Below are positions 43,703 through 54,879 of a DNA stretch of 64,000 nt, piece after piece. Position 1 is the stretch's first letter. Every line of letters begins with the position of its first letter. The stretch covers positions 1,121 to 65,120 of the IMG/VR virus record IMGVR_UViG_3300027784_000005; one strand, 5' to 3'. A program made the translations under genes and the position numbers. Source of the stretch: a virus. The notes under the pieces were generated by a model, which did not search any database, had not been told where the DNA came from, and saw nothing but the letters and a program-made list of their open reading frames with translations.

Positions 43703-46700
43703 TTAAATAGTTTCTTTTGTTTGTTTTTCTCTTAGAATTTTGAGTCTATAATTAATTGTTTTTGGATGAACGTTATATTCAATATTATCCCAACCCCATC
43801 TTTTTAAGAATACTTCCGGCTCTGCAATCAATGGGAGATTAAAGGGCTTAGGAGTTAATTCCATTAATTCTTTAACCTCTCCTACTAAATGTATTTCATC
43901 TTTATGAAATTCAAAAATCAAAGCATCATGTACATTCAATAAGAAATGTGATTTAGCTTTTTTCTTTCTCAACATTTTATGTGCTTTGATTGCCCCTAAT
44001 TGAGTGATATCTGAGGCTGTACTCTGAATAATAGCATTAAGGCCTTCCCTTAAAGCCTCGGCTTGTTTATCCTCATCAGGAGATAAAATTTGAGGTAACC
44101 TCCTTATTCTACCAAAACAATTTTCTACGTAGCCATATTGTTGTATAAATCTATGAATCTTTTTGATAAATTGATCTACTCCTTTATATAATTTGAAAAA
44201 CTCTCTACGAAAATGTTGCATTTCTTCAATAGTGGGTATGTCGTCTTCATCCCCCGATTTTTCCTTAATACCAGCTAAAGCGCGTTTTGCTGAATTATGT
44301 ACTGAGAAGTGATTTACTGTATAATAGGGTTCTTCATTTACTGTTAAATCATATACTTTTTTAACTCCTATCTCTTTAGATTCAACTAGCCTAGTCATAT
44401 AATGATTATCATTAATGATTGATAAATTATACTCCTTAGTTTTTCCATTTTTTGCTGTATGTTTCTTTTTATATAAAAACCCTATATCTAGTAAGAATTT
44501 ATCAATGTGATAAGTTATGATTTGTAATCTGTTTTTCTTTATTTTACTAACTATACCCCAATTAGTTAACATCTCTTGAAGGTCCTTTAATAATCGGGGG
44601 GACATTGATTTATAAGAAATCCCCCCTCTAGTACTAATAGAGCCATCCCCCTCAAAAATAGCTTGTAAAAAGGTTTTTTGAAATTCTTTTGGACTATTTT
44701 TTATCCAATCGGGGATATATTTATTATGTGACCTATCATTACCTTTTTCCATTAATTCCATAAACCATTCACACATGATTATGGAGGTTATATATAATGT
44801 TCTACTACGAGGTATTGGGTTACCCTGTAGATCCTTTTTAATTACCTTTTTACCCTCAGTATTTTTTCTGCGTATGTATTTATCTTTATCTGATAATGTA
44901 ATATGGTCTTCTGGGAATATGTTTTTACTTACTTCAACTATTTTATCCCAAAATTTATCACTTTTATTTGTGTAACCTTGACATATATTTAAACCATGGT
45001 AGAAATTTCTACGGAGTGGTTGTGGTAATCTAACCGACCCCTCAGATAACCAAGCTCCCATAAATGTAGCTAAATCTTGAGTCATGTATTTTGGAGGTTG
45101 CCAATCAACCTTTTTATATTTCATATTCCCCAAATCAACCTTAGGTAATTTATTATCTTCCCCAAAAACTTGGGTGTTATATACTTTTATAACGGGCTCA
45201 CCGATTTTTATATCCCCAATAGATTTAAACCCTAATACAGATTGAATTTCATGATTAGGCGTACAAGTAAGAGTAGACCCATCAGAGAATGTATATTCTT
45301 TAACTAATCTTTCCCCGTTTTTATGCAATTGTTCAACTTCGAATTCCCCTTTATAGTTTATAACCTTATCCCCTTTTTTAATGTCTTGGATATATTTATA
45401 TCCTTTATTGGTTAATACTTTAGAAAATTCAGGAAAACACCCCCCATAGATAAAGCCGAAGTTTACTAACTTAGCTCTCTTTCTTTCCCATTTTGTAACT
45501 TCATGAGGTTTCTTTTTAAAGATAAAACAAGCTGTAGTAAGGTGGACATCCCCTCCTTCTTGATATACTTTTAATAAAACTGGGTCCTGAGAGTAATAAC
45601 TCATCACTCTAAGTTCAACCTGTGAAAAGTCTATCTCTACTGGGTAATAATTTGGATCAGCTGTAAACATCCCTTTTATTTTCTTTTCCCTGGGGATATT
45701 TTGAAGATTGGGATTTTTTGAAGAGGTTCTACCTGTTACAGTACCATGTAACAGGAAATCATTGTGGATACGATCATTATAATCTACTTTATCAATAAAA
45801 GGACGGAGATAGGTTGTTAAAGCTTTATTAAAACCCCTGTATTCAAGTATATGATTTACAATCTTAATATTCTCTGAATTTTTGGGTATCTCTTTTAATA
45901 CCCCTTCAGAGGTAGATGGTTGACTGGTTTCAGTATAACCCATTACAGGTAGTTTTAATTCTTTATATAAAACCTGTTGAAGTTGAGGGGTAGAGTTGAG
46001 ATTGAATTCTTTACCTGCAACTTTAAATACCTCTTTTAAATGCTTAGCTTCTTCAATTTCATATTCTTTGATTGTATTTTTAACGTAAGGTACATCAATC
46101 TTTGTTCCCCTCATTTCAGCATCAGCATATACTCTTGTTAAAGGCATATAGAAATGAAATAATAATCTCTTTAGATTGGGAGTTAATTCTTTATAAAAAT
46201 CTCTAGCTAATCTTAATGTTAGATCACAGTCTATACAACAGTATCTACCTAATACGGGTAGAGGGATATCTCCGAAGGTTGATTCTTCTTCTTTTTTCTT
46301 AGTTAAATATTTATCTAATTCTTCATCGTAACCCCTGTATTCTGGGTATTTTTGATTAATTACAACTTTTAATCCATGCTTCTTATTCTCATCTAGGATA
46401 TAATGGGCTAACATAGTATCCATCCAAAGATTGGGAATTCTAATATTAAAATGATACTCACACATTTTTGTATCAAATTTGATATTATGGGCTATCTTCT
46501 TGGGTTTTTTAGCTAATAACACCATCTTAATTAATCTAAAAACCTCTTCATCTTCATCTCCCCAATAACTATAATAATCATCATCAAAACTTGAAACATT
46601 TGGTTCTTCATATAAAGAATCATCTTTTTTAACCATGAGGGGGATATAAACCCCCGTTTTTGGTTTCAAAGAAAAACCAATACCCAATAAGTGATGTTTC

Positions 46701-47419
46701 CAAAAAACATTACCCGTAGTTTCAACGTCAAAAGAATAATGTTTAGCTTCTATAGCTTTTTCAGCAAAAGATCTAACATCAGCTAAGTTGTCTAATACTG
46801 TATAATTACCTTTTATCTTTTTTGTTTTATAGCTCCCTGATAAAATCCCTTTCAGAGTCTTAAAGTCATAATCAAATTCTTCTTTATACTGAGGTGTTCT
46901 TATAATATAAGCTGGATGATACATGGGGAGTAATTTTACTCCATACGTTTCATCATTGATTACCCTACCGTGGTTTTTTGTAATACCGCCTTTTAATTTA
47001 AATCTTTCACAAGAGCCCGTGCCTAAAAGGACAATAGCCTTTGGTTTAGTGTGCTGTATTATAGCATCTAAGTTTTCAGCACAATGTTTTTGTTCTTTCT
47101 TTTTGGGCTTTCTATCTTTGACTTGACCCGATATGGGGTCAATATTCTCTGGCCTACAAGCTACGGTATTACATAAGGCAAAATTTGTAATCCCAAACTC
47201 ATGGATTGTTTTTTGTAATAATTTCCCGGCTCTTCCTTGAAATACCTTCCCTATTCTCTTTTCTTGACCACCAGGTGCTTCCCCAACAAATAATACCTCA
47301 CAATTGTCTAGGTCTCCCCAATAGTTATGGGGATTATAGCTTTGTTCACAATACAAGGGGCAATCATCGCAATTTGATAAAGGTAACGATATCTCACCTT
47401 TTTTTATTTTCTTCGACAT
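43703..47419 (-). CDS. polA: family A DNA polymerase with an N-terminal uracil-DNA glycosylase domain, 3'-5' exonuclease and an intein
   Basis: UDG family 4 motifs (CxxC, VGEAPG, GRAG, YHPA); exonuclease FDVET, HNIKFD, YCCIDCD; motifs A DFSQVELR, B RKRAKLVNFGFIYG, C VHDA. Confidence 0.95.
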   Translation of the reverse strand: MSKKIKKGEISLPLSNCDDCPLYCEQSYNPHNYWGDLDNCEVLFVGEAPGGQEKRIGKVFQGRAGKLLQKTIHEFGITNFALCNTVACRPENIDPISGQVKDRKPKKKEQKHCAENLDAIIQHTKPKAIVLLGTGSCERFKLKGGITKNHGRVINDETYGVKLLPMYHPAYIIRTPQYKEEFDYDFKTLKGILSGSYKTKKIKGNYTVLDNLADVRSFAEKAIEAKHYSFDVETTGNVFWKHHLLGIGFSLKPKTGVYIPLMVKKDDSLYEEPNVSSFDDDYYSYWGDEDEEVFRLIKMVLLAKKPKKIAHNIKFDTKMCEYHFNIRIPNLWMDTMLAHYILDENKKHGLKVVINQKYPEYRGYDEELDKYLTKKKEEESTFGDIPLPVLGRYCCIDCDLTLRLARDFYKELTPNLKRLLFHFYMPLTRVYADAEMRGTKIDVPYVKNTIKEYEIEEAKHLKEVFKVAGKEFNLNSTPQLQQVLYKELKLPVMGYTETSQPSTSEGVLKEIPKNSENIKIVNHILEYRGFNKALTTYLRPFIDKVDYNDRIHNDFLLHGTVTGRTSSKNPNLQNIPREKKIKGMFTADPNYYPVEIDFSQVELRVMSYYSQDPVLLKVYQEGGDVHLTTACFIFKKKPHEVTKWERKRAKLVNFGFIYGGCFPEFSKVLTNKGYKYIQDIKKGDKVINYKGEFEVEQLHKNGERLVKEYTFSDGSTLTCTPNHEIQSVLGFKSIGDIKIGEPVIKVYNTQVFGEDNKLPKVDLGNMKYKKVDWQPPKYMTQDLATFMGAWLSEGSVRLPQPLRRNFYHGLNICQGYTNKSDKFWDKIVEVSKNIFPEDHITLSDKDKYIRRKNTEGKKVIKKDLQGNPIPRSRTLYITSIIMCEWFMELMEKGNDRSHNKYIPDWIKNSPKEFQKTFLQAIFEGDGSISTRGGISYKSMSPRLLKDLQEMLTNWGIVSKIKKNRLQIITYHIDKFLLDIGFLYKKKHTAKNGKTKEYNLSIINDNHYMTRLVESKEIGVKKVYDLTVNEEPYYTVNHFSVHNSAKRALAGIKEKSGDEDDIPTIEEMQHFRREFFKLYKGVDQFIKKIHRFIQQYGYVENCFGRIRRLPQILSPDEDKQAEALREGLNAIIQSTASDITQLGAIKAHKMLRKKKAKSHFLLNVHDALIFEFHKDEIHLVGEVKELMELTPKPFNLPLIAEPEVFLKRWGWDNIEYNVHPKTINYRLKILREKQTKETI
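44294..45439 (-). mobile_element. contiguous intein with a LAGLIDADG homing endonuclease in polA (382 aa)
   Basis: YGG/CFPEFSKVLT ... FSVHN/SAKR; block B TPNH; LAGLIDADG blocks FMGAWLSEGS and LQAIFEGDGS. Confidence 0.95.
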
Positions 47420-47612: not shown

Positions 47613-47886
47613 TAGCTTTTCTCTTTGATTTTCTATAACCTTTAAAAGACTCGGTGTCTTTAAACAAATCCATTTCTTTTCTATGTCTTAATATATCTTT
47701 CCTTATAAGATTAGCCTCATCTCTTACATCTTTTAATAGGGCTCTGACTCTAGTACCGGGAGCTTTTATTCCTTTTTTATAAAACCTCCTTAAATCTGTC
47801 TGGTCTGTTTCTTCTAAAGTCTTTATCCACTCATCAATTAAATCTCTAGTGGTTTTTAATTTCTGTATTAGTTTATGGAGAGTCAT
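47605..47886 (-). CDS. histone H1-like (Hc1-type) small basic protein, paralog 2
   Basis: RRFYKKGIKAPGTRVRALLKDVRDEANLIRKDI. Confidence 0.6.
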   Translation of the reverse strand: MTLHKLIQKLKTTRDLIDEWIKTLEETDQTDLRRFYKKGIKAPGTRVRALLKDVRDEANLIRKDILRHRKEMDLFKDTESFKGYRKSKRKANG

Positions 47887-48401
47887 ATGTTCAAGGTTAT
47901 TTTATCATTTGATAATACTGCTTGAGTAGGAACCACCCCGATCTCCCGGATCAATCTATTTAGTATCTCATTCTCATCATCATTGGGGTAATAAGGGGGG
48001 TGTCTGTAAACGATCCTATTACAACCTGCTCCACATAAAACTTGATAACAATGACTACAAGGGTGATGAGTTATATAAGCAGTGAAGCCTTTATCTTTAT
48101 AGTTATCTTTTAACTCTAGTACAGCTGAGACCTCAGAATGTAAGGTCTTTCTACACCTTCCATCTTTATTTAAGATACACCCATCCTGATCAAATGTGCA
48201 ATGAGGAGTATTGGGGTGTGAGGAGTTATAACCCATTGATATTGTTCTCCCTTTATTAACTAATACACAACCAACCTTTTGTTTTTTACAGGTCCCCCTC
48301 ATTGATACCAACCCAGCCATTATTATATAATAAGAGTCTCTATCTAATCTTCCACTATAAAAAGAAGTATCAAGTTCTAATATCTGTGAGGTATCACTCA
48401 T
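47883..48401 (-). CDS. dCMP deaminase
   Basis: KVGCVLV, SMGYN, HSE, PCSHC zinc-deaminase motifs. Confidence 0.9.
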   Translation of the reverse strand: MSDTSQILELDTSFYSGRLDRDSYYIIMAGLVSMRGTCKKQKVGCVLVNKGRTISMGYNSSHPNTPHCTFDQDGCILNKDGRCRKTLHSEVSAVLELKDNYKDKGFTAYITHHPCSHCYQVLCGAGCNRIVYRHPPYYPNDDENEILNRLIREIGVVPTQAVLSNDKITLNI

Positions 48402-50031
48402 CGTCTTGTAATTTAGTTATCATATTATCCACTTTATTTAATTTATCTATCAACTCAGAACTAGCTTGATCTTTTAATTCTATCTTAATCTCATCTTTCA
48501 ATTGATTTAACAATTTTATTTTATATTTATTAAATAAGTCAAAAGATAATTTTTCTTTATCTTTCTTTGAATATTTACTATAGTTAGATACTAATTGTAT
48601 AAAGCTATCATCGTTGATTAGATTATCATCCTCAGATATTAAAAAGGGATTAATTAGTTTCTCTCTAAAGCTTTTAGGGGACCTAGATATTAAGAATTTA
48701 TCATGTTTAATCTCTGTTATTTCAACCTTAGATACTAAAAGAGAAGCTAAGAGTTTGTCTTCGATTGTTACCTCCTTGGTTTCTTGAGGTCGATTAAATG
48801 TATAAGGATTAACTTGAAATCGATTTAAAAGATGGTAAAGTTCCTCTAAGGGGATATTTGATAATTTACTGAGTTGGTTGATTTGATCAGTTTTAGTAAA
48901 CTTATCTTGTATAGTTGAAAGTCTTTTTATGGCTTCTTTTAAATTATCCTTAGAAGAGGATTTTGAGAATTTATAGAGGAAAGATAGATAGTTATAAGTC
49001 CTTTTCTTTATAGCTTTACTAAAACTCCCGTGTTCTTTTAATAAATCATCAGGGTCTTTCTTCATCTCAAAAACAATCTTAGTTTTTACTCCATGGGATA
49101 AAAACATCTGACCCACATTTAAACCAAATTTAAACCCTGCTTTGTCACCATCACAAAAAATAAGTGCTTGATTTATACTTTTTGAAATTTGGTAGGCTTG
49201 AAATGAATTAAAGTAAGACCCAGATACCGCTATTCCGAGGTTTATTTCTCTCTCAATTAATTGTGCCACATCAAACTGACCCTCAACAACAACAACCTTG
49301 GCTTTCTTTCTTATGCGAGATTTATTTAAATCCCATCCATAAATAACCTCTTTCTTTTTAAACCAATCTCCCTCTTTACTATTTAGGTATTTAGGTACTT
49401 TAGGATTATCTGATAGGGTCCTGCCCATAAATCCAACGATATCCTCTGCTTTAGAGATAGGGAAGATGATTCTATCTTTAAAAAAACTTACATCCTTATT
49501 ATTTTTAGTAACAAGGATGTTTGCTTTTTTCAATAGAGTGGAATCAAAGTCATATTTATTTAAGTGAAAGGGGTTTTTAGGGGCATAGCCTATACCTAGT
49601 TTTTTAGCTGTTTCTTTAGAAATCTCTCTTTTTTTAAGGAAATCCCTAGCATCCTTAGCTTCTGGGGATTCGAATAGGATTTTTTGATAAATATAAGACA
49701 GCCTTTTATTGATATTGATGATGTCGGTATAGTATTCGTCTTTTTTATCAATATTTTTTATTAAACGAGGTTTATTAAATCTTTTCGCTAATTTCTCTAA
49801 AGCTTTTGTATAAGTGATATTTTCTATTAGAGAAACAAATTTAATAGCATTACCTCCCACCCCACAGCCCGCTCCAAAACATTTAAAAATCCCGAGGTCT
49901 TCATTAATGGATAAAGAAGCGGTGTCTTCTTTATGGAATGGACAAACAGCCTTATTATTCTTTACTTCTATGTAATCTTTTACTACTTTTAGTATATCAA
50001 ATTCTTTAGTTAGATTTTCTTCTCTGGTCAT
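48394..50031 (-). CDS. dnaG: DNA primase (DnaG-type)
   Basis: CPFH...CFGAGC Zn finger, KYLNS, Toprim VVEGQFD and DGDKAG. Confidence 0.95.
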   Translation of the reverse strand: MTREENLTKEFDILKVVKDYIEVKNNKAVCPFHKEDTASLSINEDLGIFKCFGAGCGVGGNAIKFVSLIENITYTKALEKLAKRFNKPRLIKNIDKKDEYYTDIININKRLSYIYQKILFESPEAKDARDFLKKREISKETAKKLGIGYAPKNPFHLNKYDFDSTLLKKANILVTKNNKDVSFFKDRIIFPISKAEDIVGFMGRTLSDNPKVPKYLNSKEGDWFKKKEVIYGWDLNKSRIRKKAKVVVVEGQFDVAQLIEREINLGIAVSGSYFNSFQAYQISKSINQALIFCDGDKAGFKFGLNVGQMFLSHGVKTKIVFEMKKDPDDLLKEHGSFSKAIKKRTYNYLSFLYKFSKSSSKDNLKEAIKRLSTIQDKFTKTDQINQLSKLSNIPLEELYHLLNRFQVNPYTFNRPQETKEVTIEDKLLASLLVSKVEITEIKHDKFLISRSPKSFREKLINPFLISEDDNLINDDSFIQLVSNYSKYSKKDKEKLSFDLFNKYKIKLLNQLKDEIKIELKDQASSELIDKLNKVDNMITKLQDDE

Positions 50032-51034
50032 TATTATAAATTTGTTCTTTTAAGAAAAAACTAATAGCTGTTATTATTTGAGGAACAATAGATTTCCCCA
50101 CCTGATCTAGTTGTTGAGTGGAAGTACCATAGAACTTAAAGGTATCTGGCCATCCCATTAATCGGGCTGTTTCTCTTACTGATAGAGTACGAGGTTCATA
50201 TGGGTGTACAAACCTAGAGCAACTTGATGCTACGGTCCAAGAGGGTTTATCATAATAAAGTCTTCTGTTATTTTGAGTATTATAATAAGATTTCCCTGGC
50301 TTTAAGTTTTTAAAACCTTTTTCTCTTATTGAGGAGTGCTTTGGTTTTTCATTATTAAAATCACCCTCTGGTATATCATCAAAAGCTTCGCCTACCGTAC
50401 TCCCATGTCTCATTTGCTCTAAGGCTATCATAGTATCATTAGATAACGAGGATGGATTAAAAGGTAATATTGGTAACTGGGACCCAATCAAAAAGAATCT
50501 TTTCCTCTTTTGTGCTACATTAAAATCATAGGAGTTTAGTATAATTGTTTGAATATAATAACCTTTAAAAGATTGTGATATTTCTCCTGTTTTTACTCCT
50601 TCAATTTTGAAATAACGTTCTCCATTATAATTATAGCTATGGAAATCTAAGTGATTTGTGATATTAGGCACATTCTCCAGAATAAAACCATTAGGTTTAA
50701 TTAGATTACACATAATATCTATAAATCTACAAAAATCATTATTAAACGTTTTAGAGGTTATTTCCCTATTCTCTTTTACTTTTTTAGTACTAAGATTAGA
50801 GAATGTTTTACAATCAGGAGATCCTATAATTAAGTTAGCAGATAATAGGTTTAAAGGGACCTTTGATATATCATTAAAAAACTTAATATCTTTAAAGTTT
50901 CTCTCTATAGTATCTGTGTGTACGAAATTCCTATCATCATAATTAAAAATGGGGCGGAAACCAGCTTCCTGAGCCCCTAATAACCCAGCTCCAGCTCCGC
51001 CCCAAATTCCTCCTACTGTTAGTTGACTATCCAT
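50006..51034 (-). CDS. C5-cytosine DNA methyltransferase-fold protein with atypical motifs
   Basis: Motif IV GSPDC, VI ENV, VIII QKRKR, IX RTLSVRETARLMGWP, X QVGKSIVP; motif I is IWGGAG. Confidence 0.8.
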   Translation of the reverse strand: MDSQLTVGGIWGGAGAGLLGAQEAGFRPIFNYDDRNFVHTDTIERNFKDIKFFNDISKVPLNLLSANLIIGSPDCKTFSNLSTKKVKENREITSKTFNNDFCRFIDIMCNLIKPNGFILENVPNITNHLDFHSYNYNGERYFKIEGVKTGEISQSFKGYYIQTIILNSYDFNVAQKRKRFFLIGSQLPILPFNPSSLSNDTMIALEQMRHGSTVGEAFDDIPEGDFNNEKPKHSSIREKGFKNLKPGKSYYNTQNNRRLYYDKPSWTVASSCSRFVHPYEPRTLSVRETARLMGWPDTFKFYGTSTQQLDQVGKSIVPQIITAISFFLKEQIYNNDQRRKSN

Positions 51035-51744
51035 TAGAATATTCCTCTGGTTTTCATATCCTTATAATAAGCATGGAGTGATGTAGAGAAATAAGTATAA
51101 TTACCGACAGGAACTCCGATTTGAGAAGATATGTATTTCTGTAACTGAATAGCATGCCAGTTATCAAAAGGGAAATGAGTTAAAAAGTCACAAGACCTCA
51201 TGGTATAGACGCAATTTAGTTTATCACCCCTTATCATAAAATTATAAAACATGCTACAAGGTATACGCCCTTTACCTCCAATGTTTTGAAGATCAATTGT
51301 GTTATTATGGATGCTAATGATTGCTTGACGGGTAGGAGAATTTTTCTTGAGCTCTTCTATTATCCTTGTTAATTGGGTTCTTATCCTCTCATTGTAAGTA
51401 TAATGAAAACGCCCATCGTGGATAAACTCTTCCCATACTTCTGATCTTAGTTTCCAAGCCTCTCCCGGGTTTATTAATCTAGCGCTAGTTCTTTCTTTAA
51501 AATCAGCTAAAGCCCATTCTAACATTCTTTGATAATCATCTTCAAATAAATAACTTAAAAAAGAATTTTCATCATCGGGGTTAGTTACCATAAAACTATA
51601 AGATTGCATTTCTTTAGTATAATAATCTTCGTCCCCTTTTACATATTTATCTTGCATGGTGTGAGGTTTAACGGTAGTACCCAATTCCCACAAATCCCTT
51701 TCTACTTCCCTTACTGCTTCTGAACATTTACTAAATATCCTCAT
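51034..51744 (-). CDS. thymidylate synthase-fold enzyme A (dCMP-type specificity residue)
   Basis: RQAIISI, IPC, RSCDFLTHFPFD, SLHAY. Confidence 0.85.
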   Translation of the reverse strand: MRIFSKCSEAVREVERDLWELGTTVKPHTMQDKYVKGDEDYYTKEMQSYSFMVTNPDDENSFLSYLFEDDYQRMLEWALADFKERTSARLINPGEAWKLRSEVWEEFIHDGRFHYTYNERIRTQLTRIIEELKKNSPTRQAIISIHNNTIDLQNIGGKGRIPCSMFYNFMIRGDKLNCVYTMRSCDFLTHFPFDNWHAIQLQKYISSQIGVPVGNYTYFSTSLHAYYKDMKTRGIF

Positions 51745-51968: not shown

Positions 51969-52739
51969 TTAGTTTTTTAATAATATAGGAACATCTACTC
52001 CGTCTTCTTCCATGATCCTATGAGTTCTTTTTACAATCCTCTTAATGAAAGTCATAGTGATGCTATCAATAGATTTAGGGTCACCGAATTTATCATCCCA
52101 TATTTTTAGAGAATCTTTAAAAGCTTTATTCCAAGAACCACAAGATATCCCATATTTCCTTAAGAACATAGCACACAAGGGGGCATTAAACATATTGATA
52201 AAACCTGATGTTATGAATATAGAGAAATTAGTACAATAAACCTTTTCTTTAGCAAAACGATTAAGTATTTCCTCTAAGAAGACTAAATCCATAAACATCT
52301 TTGGATATATCTCAGTAGCTCTAAAGATGATCAAAGCCTCATACTTAGTCATAGATTCCTTTTGTATATATAATGAATCTAAGCATTTTAACCTAGAGGA
52401 ATCATCAAAAGCTGGTTCAGAAAAAGAAATTAACCCCCTTGACTGACGGGGTTGTAATTTTCTTATAATGGAAGTTAAAACATCATGTTGTTTTTTAACT
52501 TTATCTGAATAATAAGAAGTCCTTAGGGAAGCCAACTTCATATCCTTATCATAACCAGAGTACCTATAAAAATCTTGTTCCATGATCTTATTTTCGAAAT
52601 GTACTCCGTGAGTGTAACCAAAGACTTTTCGACAATAAACAGAGGGGTTATAATATACTGATCTTTCAGATGTAGCTAGGTGAGCAAGGCTATTAAACCA
52701 TAACTCTACTAGATTATCTCCGTCTATTTGTAAAAACAT
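51969..52739 (-). CDS. highly divergent thymidylate synthase-fold protein C
   Basis: SRGLISF, LKCLDSL, FRATEIYPKMFMD in TS motif order and spacing. Confidence 0.55.
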   Translation of the reverse strand: MFLQIDGDNLVELWFNSLAHLATSERSVYYNPSVYCRKVFGYTHGVHFENKIMEQDFYRYSGYDKDMKLASLRTSYYSDKVKKQHDVLTSIIRKLQPRQSRGLISFSEPAFDDSSRLKCLDSLYIQKESMTKYEALIIFRATEIYPKMFMDLVFLEEILNRFAKEKVYCTNFSIFITSGFINMFNAPLCAMFLRKYGISCGSWNKAFKDSLKIWDDKFGDPKSIDSITMTFIKRIVKRTHRIMEEDGVDVPILLKN

Positions 52740-53706: not shown

Positions 53707-54327
53707 TTAATAGTTCGTATTTTGACGGAATTTATTTACTTGAGATTTTTTATAGTATAGTTCATATATATCCTTAGCTTCACATCCAGATATTACAAAA
53801 AGAACAATTAGTTTTGTGAAAGACTTATTAGCAATATGTTCGAATTTATTATAATCGGTTAAGACCTGGGTTTTCTTCCATTTCTTATTCTTGAGGGTGT
53901 TACCTACTAACCCCAGGTGTTTAATGTAATCTAAACTACCTTCGTTAATAGAATGGTCAGTAGACTTTTCAGTTATAGTACCTTTTATGTTATTAACCAT
54001 TTCTTCTAAATTTGAAAAGCGGTGTTTAGAATCTACCCCAGCTAAGATTAAAGCCTCAACAATAAAATGTAGAGCATCAGATAATTCTTCTAGGTAATGC
54101 TCTTTATGTCCCAGTTCTAAAGCCTCTAAAGCCTCAGCAACTTCTTCAGTAGACCTCCAAAGAAAATCTTTTATCCAAGCTTGGTGCTCATAGTTATTAA
54201 TATCAAAGGGCCAATCTGGTATACCTTCAATATCTTTATACTTAATTGCTAGATCCTCTTGAGTTTTAAAAATATCTCTAAGGAATTGCATTGAATCTGG
54301 TACATCTACTACATCTTGGATATTCAT
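53707..54327 (-). CDS. dimeric all-alpha dUTPase/dCTPase (T4 gp56-like superfamily)
   Basis: EEVAEA, EELSDALHF, KNKKWK, KSQVNKFRQ. Confidence 0.8.
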   Translation of the reverse strand: MNIQDVVDVPDSMQFLRDIFKTQEDLAIKYKDIEGIPDWPFDINNYEHQAWIKDFLWRSTEEVAEALEALELGHKEHYLEELSDALHFIVEALILAGVDSKHRFSNLEEMVNNIKGTITEKSTDHSINEGSLDYIKHLGLVGNTLKNKKWKKTQVLTDYNKFEHIANKSFTKLIVLFVISGCEAKDIYELYYKKSQVNKFRQNTNY

Positions 54328-54330
54328 ATA

Positions 54331-54879
54331 TTAAGCCTCATTTATTTTTAGTTTTATAAAATTGATTGCATTGTTAAAATATTTATCATCCCCATTAACC
54401 GAAAAAACATTTACTTTAGTATTTTCTAGGAACTTTAAATACCTTTGATTTAGATAAAAAATATCTTCTTTATTTATATAATCATCGCCTCTAGAAGATA
54501 GACGCTCATTTAAAGTATGATTGTCTGAAAAGACATAGATTATTAAAACTTCTTCACCAAGTTCTTCTACTATCTCATTTTCAAAAGACTCATAAAATCG
54601 ATCTTCAAATCCTTCATAATTCCTTTTTACTAAAGAATACACCATCTCTGAGGGATAAAACCTCTCTACGATTAAGTGAGACCTATTAAGTCTTATTGTT
54701 TTTTTATAAAGATCATATACTGTTTTGTATGATCTCTTTAATCTACCTATCTCAGATTGATCAGAAGACCGCGGGATATCACCTCTACGAATTAAAAACG
54801 AATTATTTAATTCTCTTAAAAGTTTATTAGCAAAAGTCGTTTTACCTGAACAATCGACCCCTTCTATGATTATCATCAT
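54331..54879 (-). CDS. deoxynucleoside monophosphate kinase
   Basis: IIIEGVDCSGKTT P-loop; ERFYPSE. Confidence 0.85.
   Translation of the reverse strand: MMIIIEGVDCSGKTTFANKLLRELNNSFLIRRGDIPRSSDQSEIGRLKRSYKTVYDLYKKTIRLNRSHLIVERFYPSEMVYSLVKRNYEGFEDRFYESFENEIVEELGEEVLIIYVFSDNHTLNERLSSRGDDYINKEDIFYLNQRYLKFLENTKVNVFSVNGDDKYFNNAINFIKLKINEA

Follow-up and report, generated by a model that had tools for sequence, protein, structure and literature searches.

A phage C5-methyltransferase-fold protein with lysines in the transferable-group pocket: a possible carboxymethyltransferase encoded among thymidylate synthase paralogs

The stretch of DNA considered here (the window) comprises 64 kb of the virus record IMGVR_UViG_3300027784_000005, which is 67.6 kb long and is rated complete by CheckV. 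The probable source sample of this virus is a salt lake metagenome, with the sequencing-run lookup also returning a run with a 5% share, and no RNA run is present among the sequencing runs matched to the window. In a replication operon on the minus strand, immediately downstream of the gene for a thymidylate synthase (TS) paralog, lies a gene that an earlier note, made from the sequence alone, assigned to the cytosine-C5 methyltransferase (C5-MTase) fold, with an altered cofactor pocket and a possible role in tailoring 5-hydroxymethylcytosine (5hmC). This is a real, well-folding C5-MTase-fold gene in which the canonical residues around the transferable group are replaced by two lysines and an aspartate. 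We tentatively propose, at a probability of about 0.35, that its product is a Lys-type transferase of carboxymethyl or another anionic alkyl group, fed by carboxy-S-adenosylmethionine (Cx-SAM) of the host.

50006..51034, minus strand: C5-MTase-fold gene, 342 amino acids (PF00145 at 112.5 bits; AlphaFold2 model; Foldseek)

The curated cut-off of PF00145 is 22 bits. The AlphaFold2 (AF2) model of the protein has a pLDDT of 90.4 and a pTM of 0.91, and its top Foldseek matches in the PDB are C5-MTases without exception, with E values of 1e-13 to 1e-16 for 3g7u, DNMT1, HaeIII, 8yf3 and HhaI; the carboxymethyltransferase CmoX (8YF3) occupies rank 11, and on this model CmoX and ordinary methyltransferases are not separable. 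The protein shares the fold and the order of motifs I through X with M.HhaI and M.HaeIII (profile E values 1e-24 and 5e-24), but where these enzymes have PPCQ and GN, it has lysines at the Q82 and N304 positions. Alignment of a profile of 24 relatives (41-58% identity) to M.HhaI gives the following map.

50990..51007, minus strand: motif I, IWGGAG, residues 10-15 (W11 = HhaI F18)
50930..50938, minus strand: motif II, D33-D34-R35 (D33 = HhaI E40; R35 invariant in the superclade described below)
50807..50821, minus strand: motif IV, SPDCK (SPDC residues 72-75; D74 = HhaI P80, C75 = catalytic C81, K76 = Q82)
50669..50677, minus strand: motif VI, ENV, residues 120-122 (E120 = HhaI E119)
50498..50512, minus strand: motif VIII, QKRKR, residues 175-179 (R177/R179 = HhaI R163/R165)
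50090..50098, minus strand: motif X, GKS, residues 313-315 (K314 = HhaI N304 = R350 of SpCmoX)

The catalytic cysteine of SPDC, the ENV and the QxRxR, which the earlier note listed as kept, are found at the expected sites: C75, E120, R177 and R179 are invariant across the 24 relatives, which also conserve the glycines of motif I and the acid of motif II. The note also considered motifs I and II to be altered, and here the alignment speaks against it. IWGGAG is a normal aromatic-x-G-x-G motif (W-G-G-A-G, with F, Y or W in the relatives), and D33, in the YDDRNFVHT segment (residues 32-40), aligns with the motif II glutamate of M.HhaI, a position at which Asp is the commoner residue in ordinary enzymes (59 D vs 32 E among 106 C5-MTase matches outside the superclade). 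Since neither motif is degenerate, loss of the adenosyl cofactor is not indicated. Two further features are that the aromatic residue following the motif II acid, present in HhaI and SpCmoX, is missing, and that motif III has no conserved Asp in the clade of the 24 relatives.

As judged from the alignment, the true departures from the C5-MTase norm lie in motif IV, with D74 and K76 (Asp-Cys-Lys in place of the canonical Pro-Cys-Gln), and in motif X, with K314 (Gly-Lys in place of Gly-Asn). The last of these was correctly noticed from the sequence, whereas the lysine following the catalytic cysteine had been overlooked. The two lysines, K76 and K314, do not vary among the 24 relatives and D74 hardly does, a degree of conservation that excludes chance as the source of the three changes. 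In M.HhaI numbering these are P80D, Q82K and N304K, all residues that lie beside the transferable group: modelling of M.HhaI with an extended analogue of the cofactor puts Gln82, Tyr254 and Asn304 near the transferable side chain, and the Q82A replacement alone reduces methylation about 16-fold (PMC3526304). Two of the pocket-widening sites of the engineered Q82A/Y254S/N304A variant of M.HhaI (PMC3526304) are thus lysines in the window protein. Accordingly, the claim of an altered cofactor pocket stands for the surroundings of the transferable group and falls for motifs I and II.

An exhaustive profile search combined with residue tabulation delineates a superclade to which the window protein belongs, with 52 representatives (proteins of about 260-430 amino acids) and the hallmark [E/D]-x-R after strand 2. 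Neither Asn304 nor Gln82 occurs in any of the 52: position 304 is occupied by K in 40, C in 5, R in 4, A in 2 and S in 1; position 82 by K in 37, A in 10 and other residues in the rest; and position 80 by D in 29, P in 10, S in 9 and other residues in the rest. Three types of pocket recur at positions 80/82/304, namely D/K/K, to which the window gene belongs, [P/S]/A/[K/R] and P/K/[C/A/S], and Lys or Arg is present at 82 or 304 in every representative. Among the 106 matches outside the superclade, Pro80 is found in 103, Gln82 in 85, Asn304 in 92 and Asp80 in none, so that the caveat of the earlier note, according to which ordinary phage methyltransferases can have SPDC too, does not hold in this set.

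In a FastTree phylogeny, a quick tree with SH-like supports and without bootstrap, the superclade (58 rows, all lacking N304) is split by a 99% branch from the canonical methyltransferases and SpCmoX, the latter grouping among the N304 enzymes; hence the basic residue at 304 was not inherited in common with CmoX but is convergent with it. The superclade has no cultured relative that we could find: tblastn with the window protein and two other members against 50,697 phage records gave matches of at most 33% identity, and megablast with 10 kb gave none. Several members come as two tandem C5-MTase-like paralogs that differ in pocket residues (loci L027, 1106-3795; L028, 1827-3868; L032, 7923-10347; and the JGI 3300010883 contig), for instance P/K/C beside P/S/K in L028, or S/A/R beside S/G/K; in the JGI 3300010883 contig (genes 60-2641), a DUF1937 (PF09152) gene lies between two TS genes just upstream of the tandem pair. 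Apart from these, some C5-MTases of phages or prophages in IMG/VR (L072, L095, L096) form a group that combines CAPCQ in motif IV with G-R-[L/M] in motif X, that is, Arg at the N304 position; neither a CmoA gene nor a TS gene was found in these three records.

What could a basic residue do at this site? A precedent, of which the earlier note was unaware, is carboxymethylation that depends on Cx-SAM (PMC12783734, PMC12015181). Natural 5-carboxymethylcytosine and CmoX were first described in December 2025, with an arginine and an accompanying CmoA gene as the defining marks of the family (PMC12783734). In SpCmoX of Synechococcus phage S-B43 (PDB 8YF3), Arg350 contacts the carboxylate of Cx-SAM; the wild-type enzyme accepts only Cx-SAM and not S-adenosylmethionine (SAM), the R350N variant is dead, and DNA is carboxymethylated in E. 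coli with the host CmoA alone (PMC12783734). The engineered M.MpeI N374K and M.MedI N377K gain carboxymethyltransferase activity, which E45D improves about 9-fold in M.MpeI N374K, and M.MedI N377K still methylates with SAM, giving >99% protection (PMC12015181).

The SpCmoX sequence (taken from MN018232) aligns with the window protein at 24% identity, with GSPPCS opposite GSPDCK and VGRMVPP opposite VGKSIVP. The two proteins share the phage C5-MTase fold, G-S-P-x-C in motif IV, a basic residue at the HhaI N304 site and an intact Cys, ENV and RxR; they differ in that SpCmoX has R350 and SPPC-S and sits beside cmoA, whereas the window protein has K314 and SPDC-K and its gene is embedded among TS-fold genes. 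The features that define CmoX (Yang et al., Nat Commun 2025), namely Arg at R350, SPPC, a CmoA encoded by the phage and common descent, are all lacking in the window gene, and the published filter (SPPC plus R350) would miss its family. The motif X change from Asn to Lys is the same as in M.MpeI N374K, M.MpeI E45D/N374K and M.MedI N377K; however, these are laboratory point mutants of CpG methylases that keep PCQ, whereas in the window family Q82 is also replaced by Lys and P80 by Asp, and the changes are naturally fixed. The Asp at the motif II acid that the window protein has in common with the E45D mutant carries no diagnostic weight, being common in ordinary methyltransferases, and M.MpeI itself is outside the alignment.

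Taken together, the chemistry of the pocket favours a transferable group that is anionic, and with Cx-SAM as the sole precedent, a carboxymethyltransferase acting on host Cx-SAM becomes the best single explanation. This hypothesis draws support from the location of K314 at the site of SpCmoX R350 and of the engineered N374K and N377K, from the invariant pair of lysines at the Q82 and N304 positions of the 24 relatives, from the basic residues and the missing N304 throughout the superclade, from the conserved state of the catalytic residues, of the glycines in motif I and of the acid in motif II, and from the sufficiency of host CmoA for SpCmoX in E. coli. Under this scenario, the adenosyl-binding site of C5-MTases and their covalent Cys-C6 mechanism would have been kept and the pocket for the transferable group rebuilt with K76, K314 and D74; the enzyme would move a carboxymethyl or other anionic alkyl group from Cx-SAM, putatively supplied by the host CmoA, to the C5 position of cytosines once the phage DNA has been replicated, and the resulting 5-carboxymethylcytosine would protect that DNA from restriction. 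The protein would then be an independently evolved functional analogue of phage CmoX that does without a CmoA of its own.

The locus itself brings in a different theme. The minus-strand operon that holds the gene is tightly packed and encodes, in this order, DnaB, TS paralog B, a sigma-like protein, a helicase, a deoxynucleoside monophosphate (dNMP) kinase, a PF08761 pyrophosphatase, a DnaA-C helix-turn-helix protein, a 256-residue protein, TS paralog A, the C5-MTase-fold protein, a primase, a dCMP deaminase and an intein-bearing PolA.

57895..58776, minus strand: TS paralog B (TS-B), 293 amino acids, Asp-type (PF00303; best PDB match, the CMP hydroxymethylase MilA)
54331..54879, minus strand: dNMP kinase-like gene (family search)
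53707..54327, minus strand: PF08761 NTP pyrophosphatase, the Pfam family of the T4 gp56 dCTPase (profile match)
51969..52739, minus strand: third TS-fold paralog, 256 amino acids (AF2 and VIA-align fold search)
51034..51744, minus strand: TS paralog A (TS-A), 236 amino acids (PF00303; Asp at the ThyA N177 position, Arg at the L143 position)
48394..50031, minus strand: DnaG-type primase, starting 26 nt inside the 3' end of the C5-MTase-fold gene, with the same order in relatives
47883..48401, minus strand: dCMP deaminase (family search)

As the earlier note stated, the TS-A stop and the start of the C5-MTase-fold gene overlap by one base: base 51034 is common to the TAA and the ATG (TAATG), with a GAGG-like site upstream. 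TS-A and TS-B both have Arg at position 143, Asp at 169 and 177, and R-[IV/R]-P-C, which is invariant in the TS-A family; neither has the L143D/E signature of hydroxymethylases or the D169N signature of 5-hydroxy-dCMP synthases (PMC13326640), and they fit none of the published signatures of methylases, hydroxymethylases or 5-hydroxylases. A predicted complex of the C5-MTase-fold protein with TS-A scored 0.00, which is neither support for nor evidence against binding. The 256-residue protein has no Pfam or PHROG match, yet its AF2 model (pLDDT 75) yields seven top VIA-align matches that all belong to the TS family, with Z scores of 10.2 for 9iqc (flavin-dependent dCMP monooxygenase), 8.4 for the T4 dCMP hydroxymethylase and 8.3 for MilA. 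In hhalign, its family gives only a 15-column local match to TS-A, and its mean column identity of 78% is above that of its neighbours. The notion that this protein could be a non-homologous Cx-SAM synthase was dropped in view of the TS fold.

The families that make up the deoxycytidine (dC) replacement pathway of T4, namely the gp56 dCTPase, the gp42 dCMP hydroxymethylase, the gp1 dNMP kinase and the cd deaminase, are all represented in the window, so that at the level of protein families this phage possesses equivalents of the T4 set. The T4 match to PF08761 is gp56, and the link between the window pyrophosphatase and gp56 is through this family profile alone, a protein search of T4 with the window protein having returned nothing. 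The T4 pathway includes no C5-MTase-fold gene, whereas the window phage has one together with three TS-fold paralogs.

Several further observations concern the genome and its host. The PolA gene (43703-47419, minus strand) is interrupted by an intein in the window, and in relatives its product has an N-terminal uracil-DNA glycosylase-like domain (PF03167); in relative L004, inteins or homing-endonuclease domains interrupt TS-A, DnaB and RecA, and in L106 a TS gene is interrupted likewise. CpG is strongly under-represented in the window and in loci L002-L036 (rho 0.24-0.72) without an excess of TpG/CpA, and in the window GCGC and CGCG occur at about 0.2 of the zero-order expectation, with CCGG (1.8) and GGCC (1.7) over-represented; these di- and tetranucleotide counts are uninformative on the target site of the enzyme. 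A weak tblastn hint from the primase, at less than 32% identity, points to phages of Bacteroidota or Campylobacterota and is insufficient to name a host. The single match in a scan of genome contigs, a viral contig binned in a Pacearchaeota metagenome-assembled genome, is identical with the contig of an IMG/VR record and carries no host information.

Against this backdrop, the proposal of carboxymethylation on host Cx-SAM faces several difficulties. No CmoA was detected with the NCBIfam model TIGR00740 in any of 17 virus records (the window genome, 10 of the D/K/K clade and 6 others of the superclade; four of the 17 are at least 94% complete), the same model recovering SpCmoA beside SpCmoX in S-B43 with an E value of 2.5e-34; for comparison, the contigs of the 5,615 published Arg-type CmoX sequences hold 4,257 CmoA genes. 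Moreover, a true CmoA above the family cut-off is present in only 1 of 14 control genomes. Equally, the Asn-synthetase-like amide ligase that lies nearby in CmoX-CmoY hypermodification has no counterpart in the window genome, in which nothing matched PF00733. The T4-like toolkit comprises the gp56-family pyrophosphatase, three TS-fold genes of Asp type and the dNMP kinase; if it effects complete replacement of dC, no free C5-H would be left to alkylate. The aspartate D74 beside the lysines finds no explanation in carboxymethylation, and, given that the tree shows no kinship with CmoX, the case for this function is one of convergence at one residue. Finally, Lys variants are able to go on methylating with SAM, as M.MedI N377K does.

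Some of these difficulties turn into arguments for an enzyme that acts on a cytosine already substituted at C5 (5hmC or another 5-X-C) that the TS-fold enzymes and the nucleotide pool put into DNA. This is a broadened form of the idea in the earlier note. It stays the main rival, a close second to carboxymethylation even if in itself unlikely, on three grounds: CmoA is missing from the 17 records, the gene is linked to TS genes, and the D/K/K type goes together with the third TS-fold paralog. In such a reaction, Cys75 would attack C6, and the 5-substituent would be either exchanged, with the hydroxyl leaving and a bound nucleophile adding, or alkylated; the acid/base steps and the binding of this substituent, or of the group that comes in, would fall to D74, K76 and K314, so that the aspartate would have a role. 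C5-MTases add aldehydes to cytosine and derivatise 5hmC in vitro, although we know of no natural enzyme that performs tailoring of this kind.

The genomic context is where this alternative gains most. The coupling to TS-A that the earlier note inferred from one genome is conserved well beyond it, and the co-occurrence analysis it suggested finds TS-fold genes in 15 of the 17 records, each of the four with a completeness of 94% or more among them, as well as on every further contig with enough upstream sequence. In most loci, a TS-A-like open reading frame lies directly upstream of the transferase, and the 1-nt overlap is repeated in marine relatives whose C5-MTase-fold protein is only about 42% identical. 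The third TS-fold paralog is found upstream in 12 of the 12 D/K/K-type loci with enough sequence and in none of the five loci of other pocket types, among them a P/A/K variant that is nested inside the D/K/K clade. In addition, a Sulfotransfer_2 gene adjoins TS-B in L004 (352-984), and in L026 (22-7670) genes of NDP-sugar metabolism (epimerases, UDP-glucose dehydrogenase, a nucleotidyltransferase and a sugar C-methyltransferase) surround a TS pair and the transferase, which suggests that these phages decorate a base with a hydroxyl group still further. The presence of the dC-replacement toolkit without CmoA fits as well. On the other side of the ledger, the conserved glycine loop and ribose-binding acid suggest continued binding of an adenosyl cofactor; TS-A is missing from the closest relative (L005/L006, 56-57% identity), which retains the C5-MTase-fold gene, TS-B and the 256-residue gene; a TS gene is also missing from one superclade fragment of 42 kb; the gene order could be the inherited synteny of a single replication module; and complete replacement of dC is itself an inference. 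It is also conceivable, if doubtful, that the whole superclade consists of post-replicative tailoring enzymes for TS-made 5-substituted cytosine rather than alkylators of plain cytosine, with positions 80/82/304 tuned to the set of TS paralogs.

A more conservative interpretation, which we regard as improbable, is that of an ordinary, SAM-dependent and sequence-specific 5-methylcytosine methyltransferase, in which a salt bridge between D74 and a lysine replaces the packing of Pro, Gln and Asn as a quirk of the lineage. All catalytic and SAM-anchoring motifs are present, no CmoA accompanies the gene, the engineered Asn-to-Lys variants still methylate with SAM, and D74 and the two lysines could partly neutralise each other. 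However, the loss of both Asn304 and Gln82 in 52 of 52 representatives is hard to reconcile with a quirk; subclades that lack the Asp still hold unpaired Lys or Arg in the pocket; the tandem paralogs with differing pockets look like diversification rather than drift; the Q82A replacement alone costs M.HhaI most of its methylation (PMC3526304); and SpCmoX, with its basic residue at the motif X site, refuses SAM (PMC12783734).

Less probable still is an adenosyl cofactor other than SAM or CmoA-made Cx-SAM, such as an anionic SAM derivative whose synthase, of the phage or of the host, has gone unrecognised, or SAM bound in another orientation, so that its aminocarboxypropyl group would be the one transferred. 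The net positive charge of the pocket and the lack of CmoA in the 17 records are compatible with such a cofactor, as are the invariant R35, the missing aromatic after the motif II acid and the unconserved motif III Asp, but no candidate synthase is at hand, the uncharacterised open reading frames of the module having given no family matches, and the idea is pure inference. An enzyme of free nucleotides or a DNMT2-like tRNA methylase can be dropped for want of support: as in DNA methyltransferases, a long and highly conserved region separates motif VIII from motif IX, and the gene lies in a replication operon.

Whichever of these scenarios is correct, the superclade is a second phage family, evolved independently and known only from uncultured phages, that has lost the asparagine of motif X in all its representatives, and most of its members, the window gene included, carry the very lysine that protein engineers chose. 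Should carboxymethylation prove to be the actual reaction, this modification of DNA may be more widespread than the CmoX family and able to run on host Cx-SAM; should the coupling to TS be the key, the C5-MTase fold would have been recruited to pre-modified cytosine, making a new class of DNA hypermodification enzyme. Either way, these phages provide natural variants at the residues that are used in engineering enzymes for DNA labelling and 5-methylcytosine sequencing.

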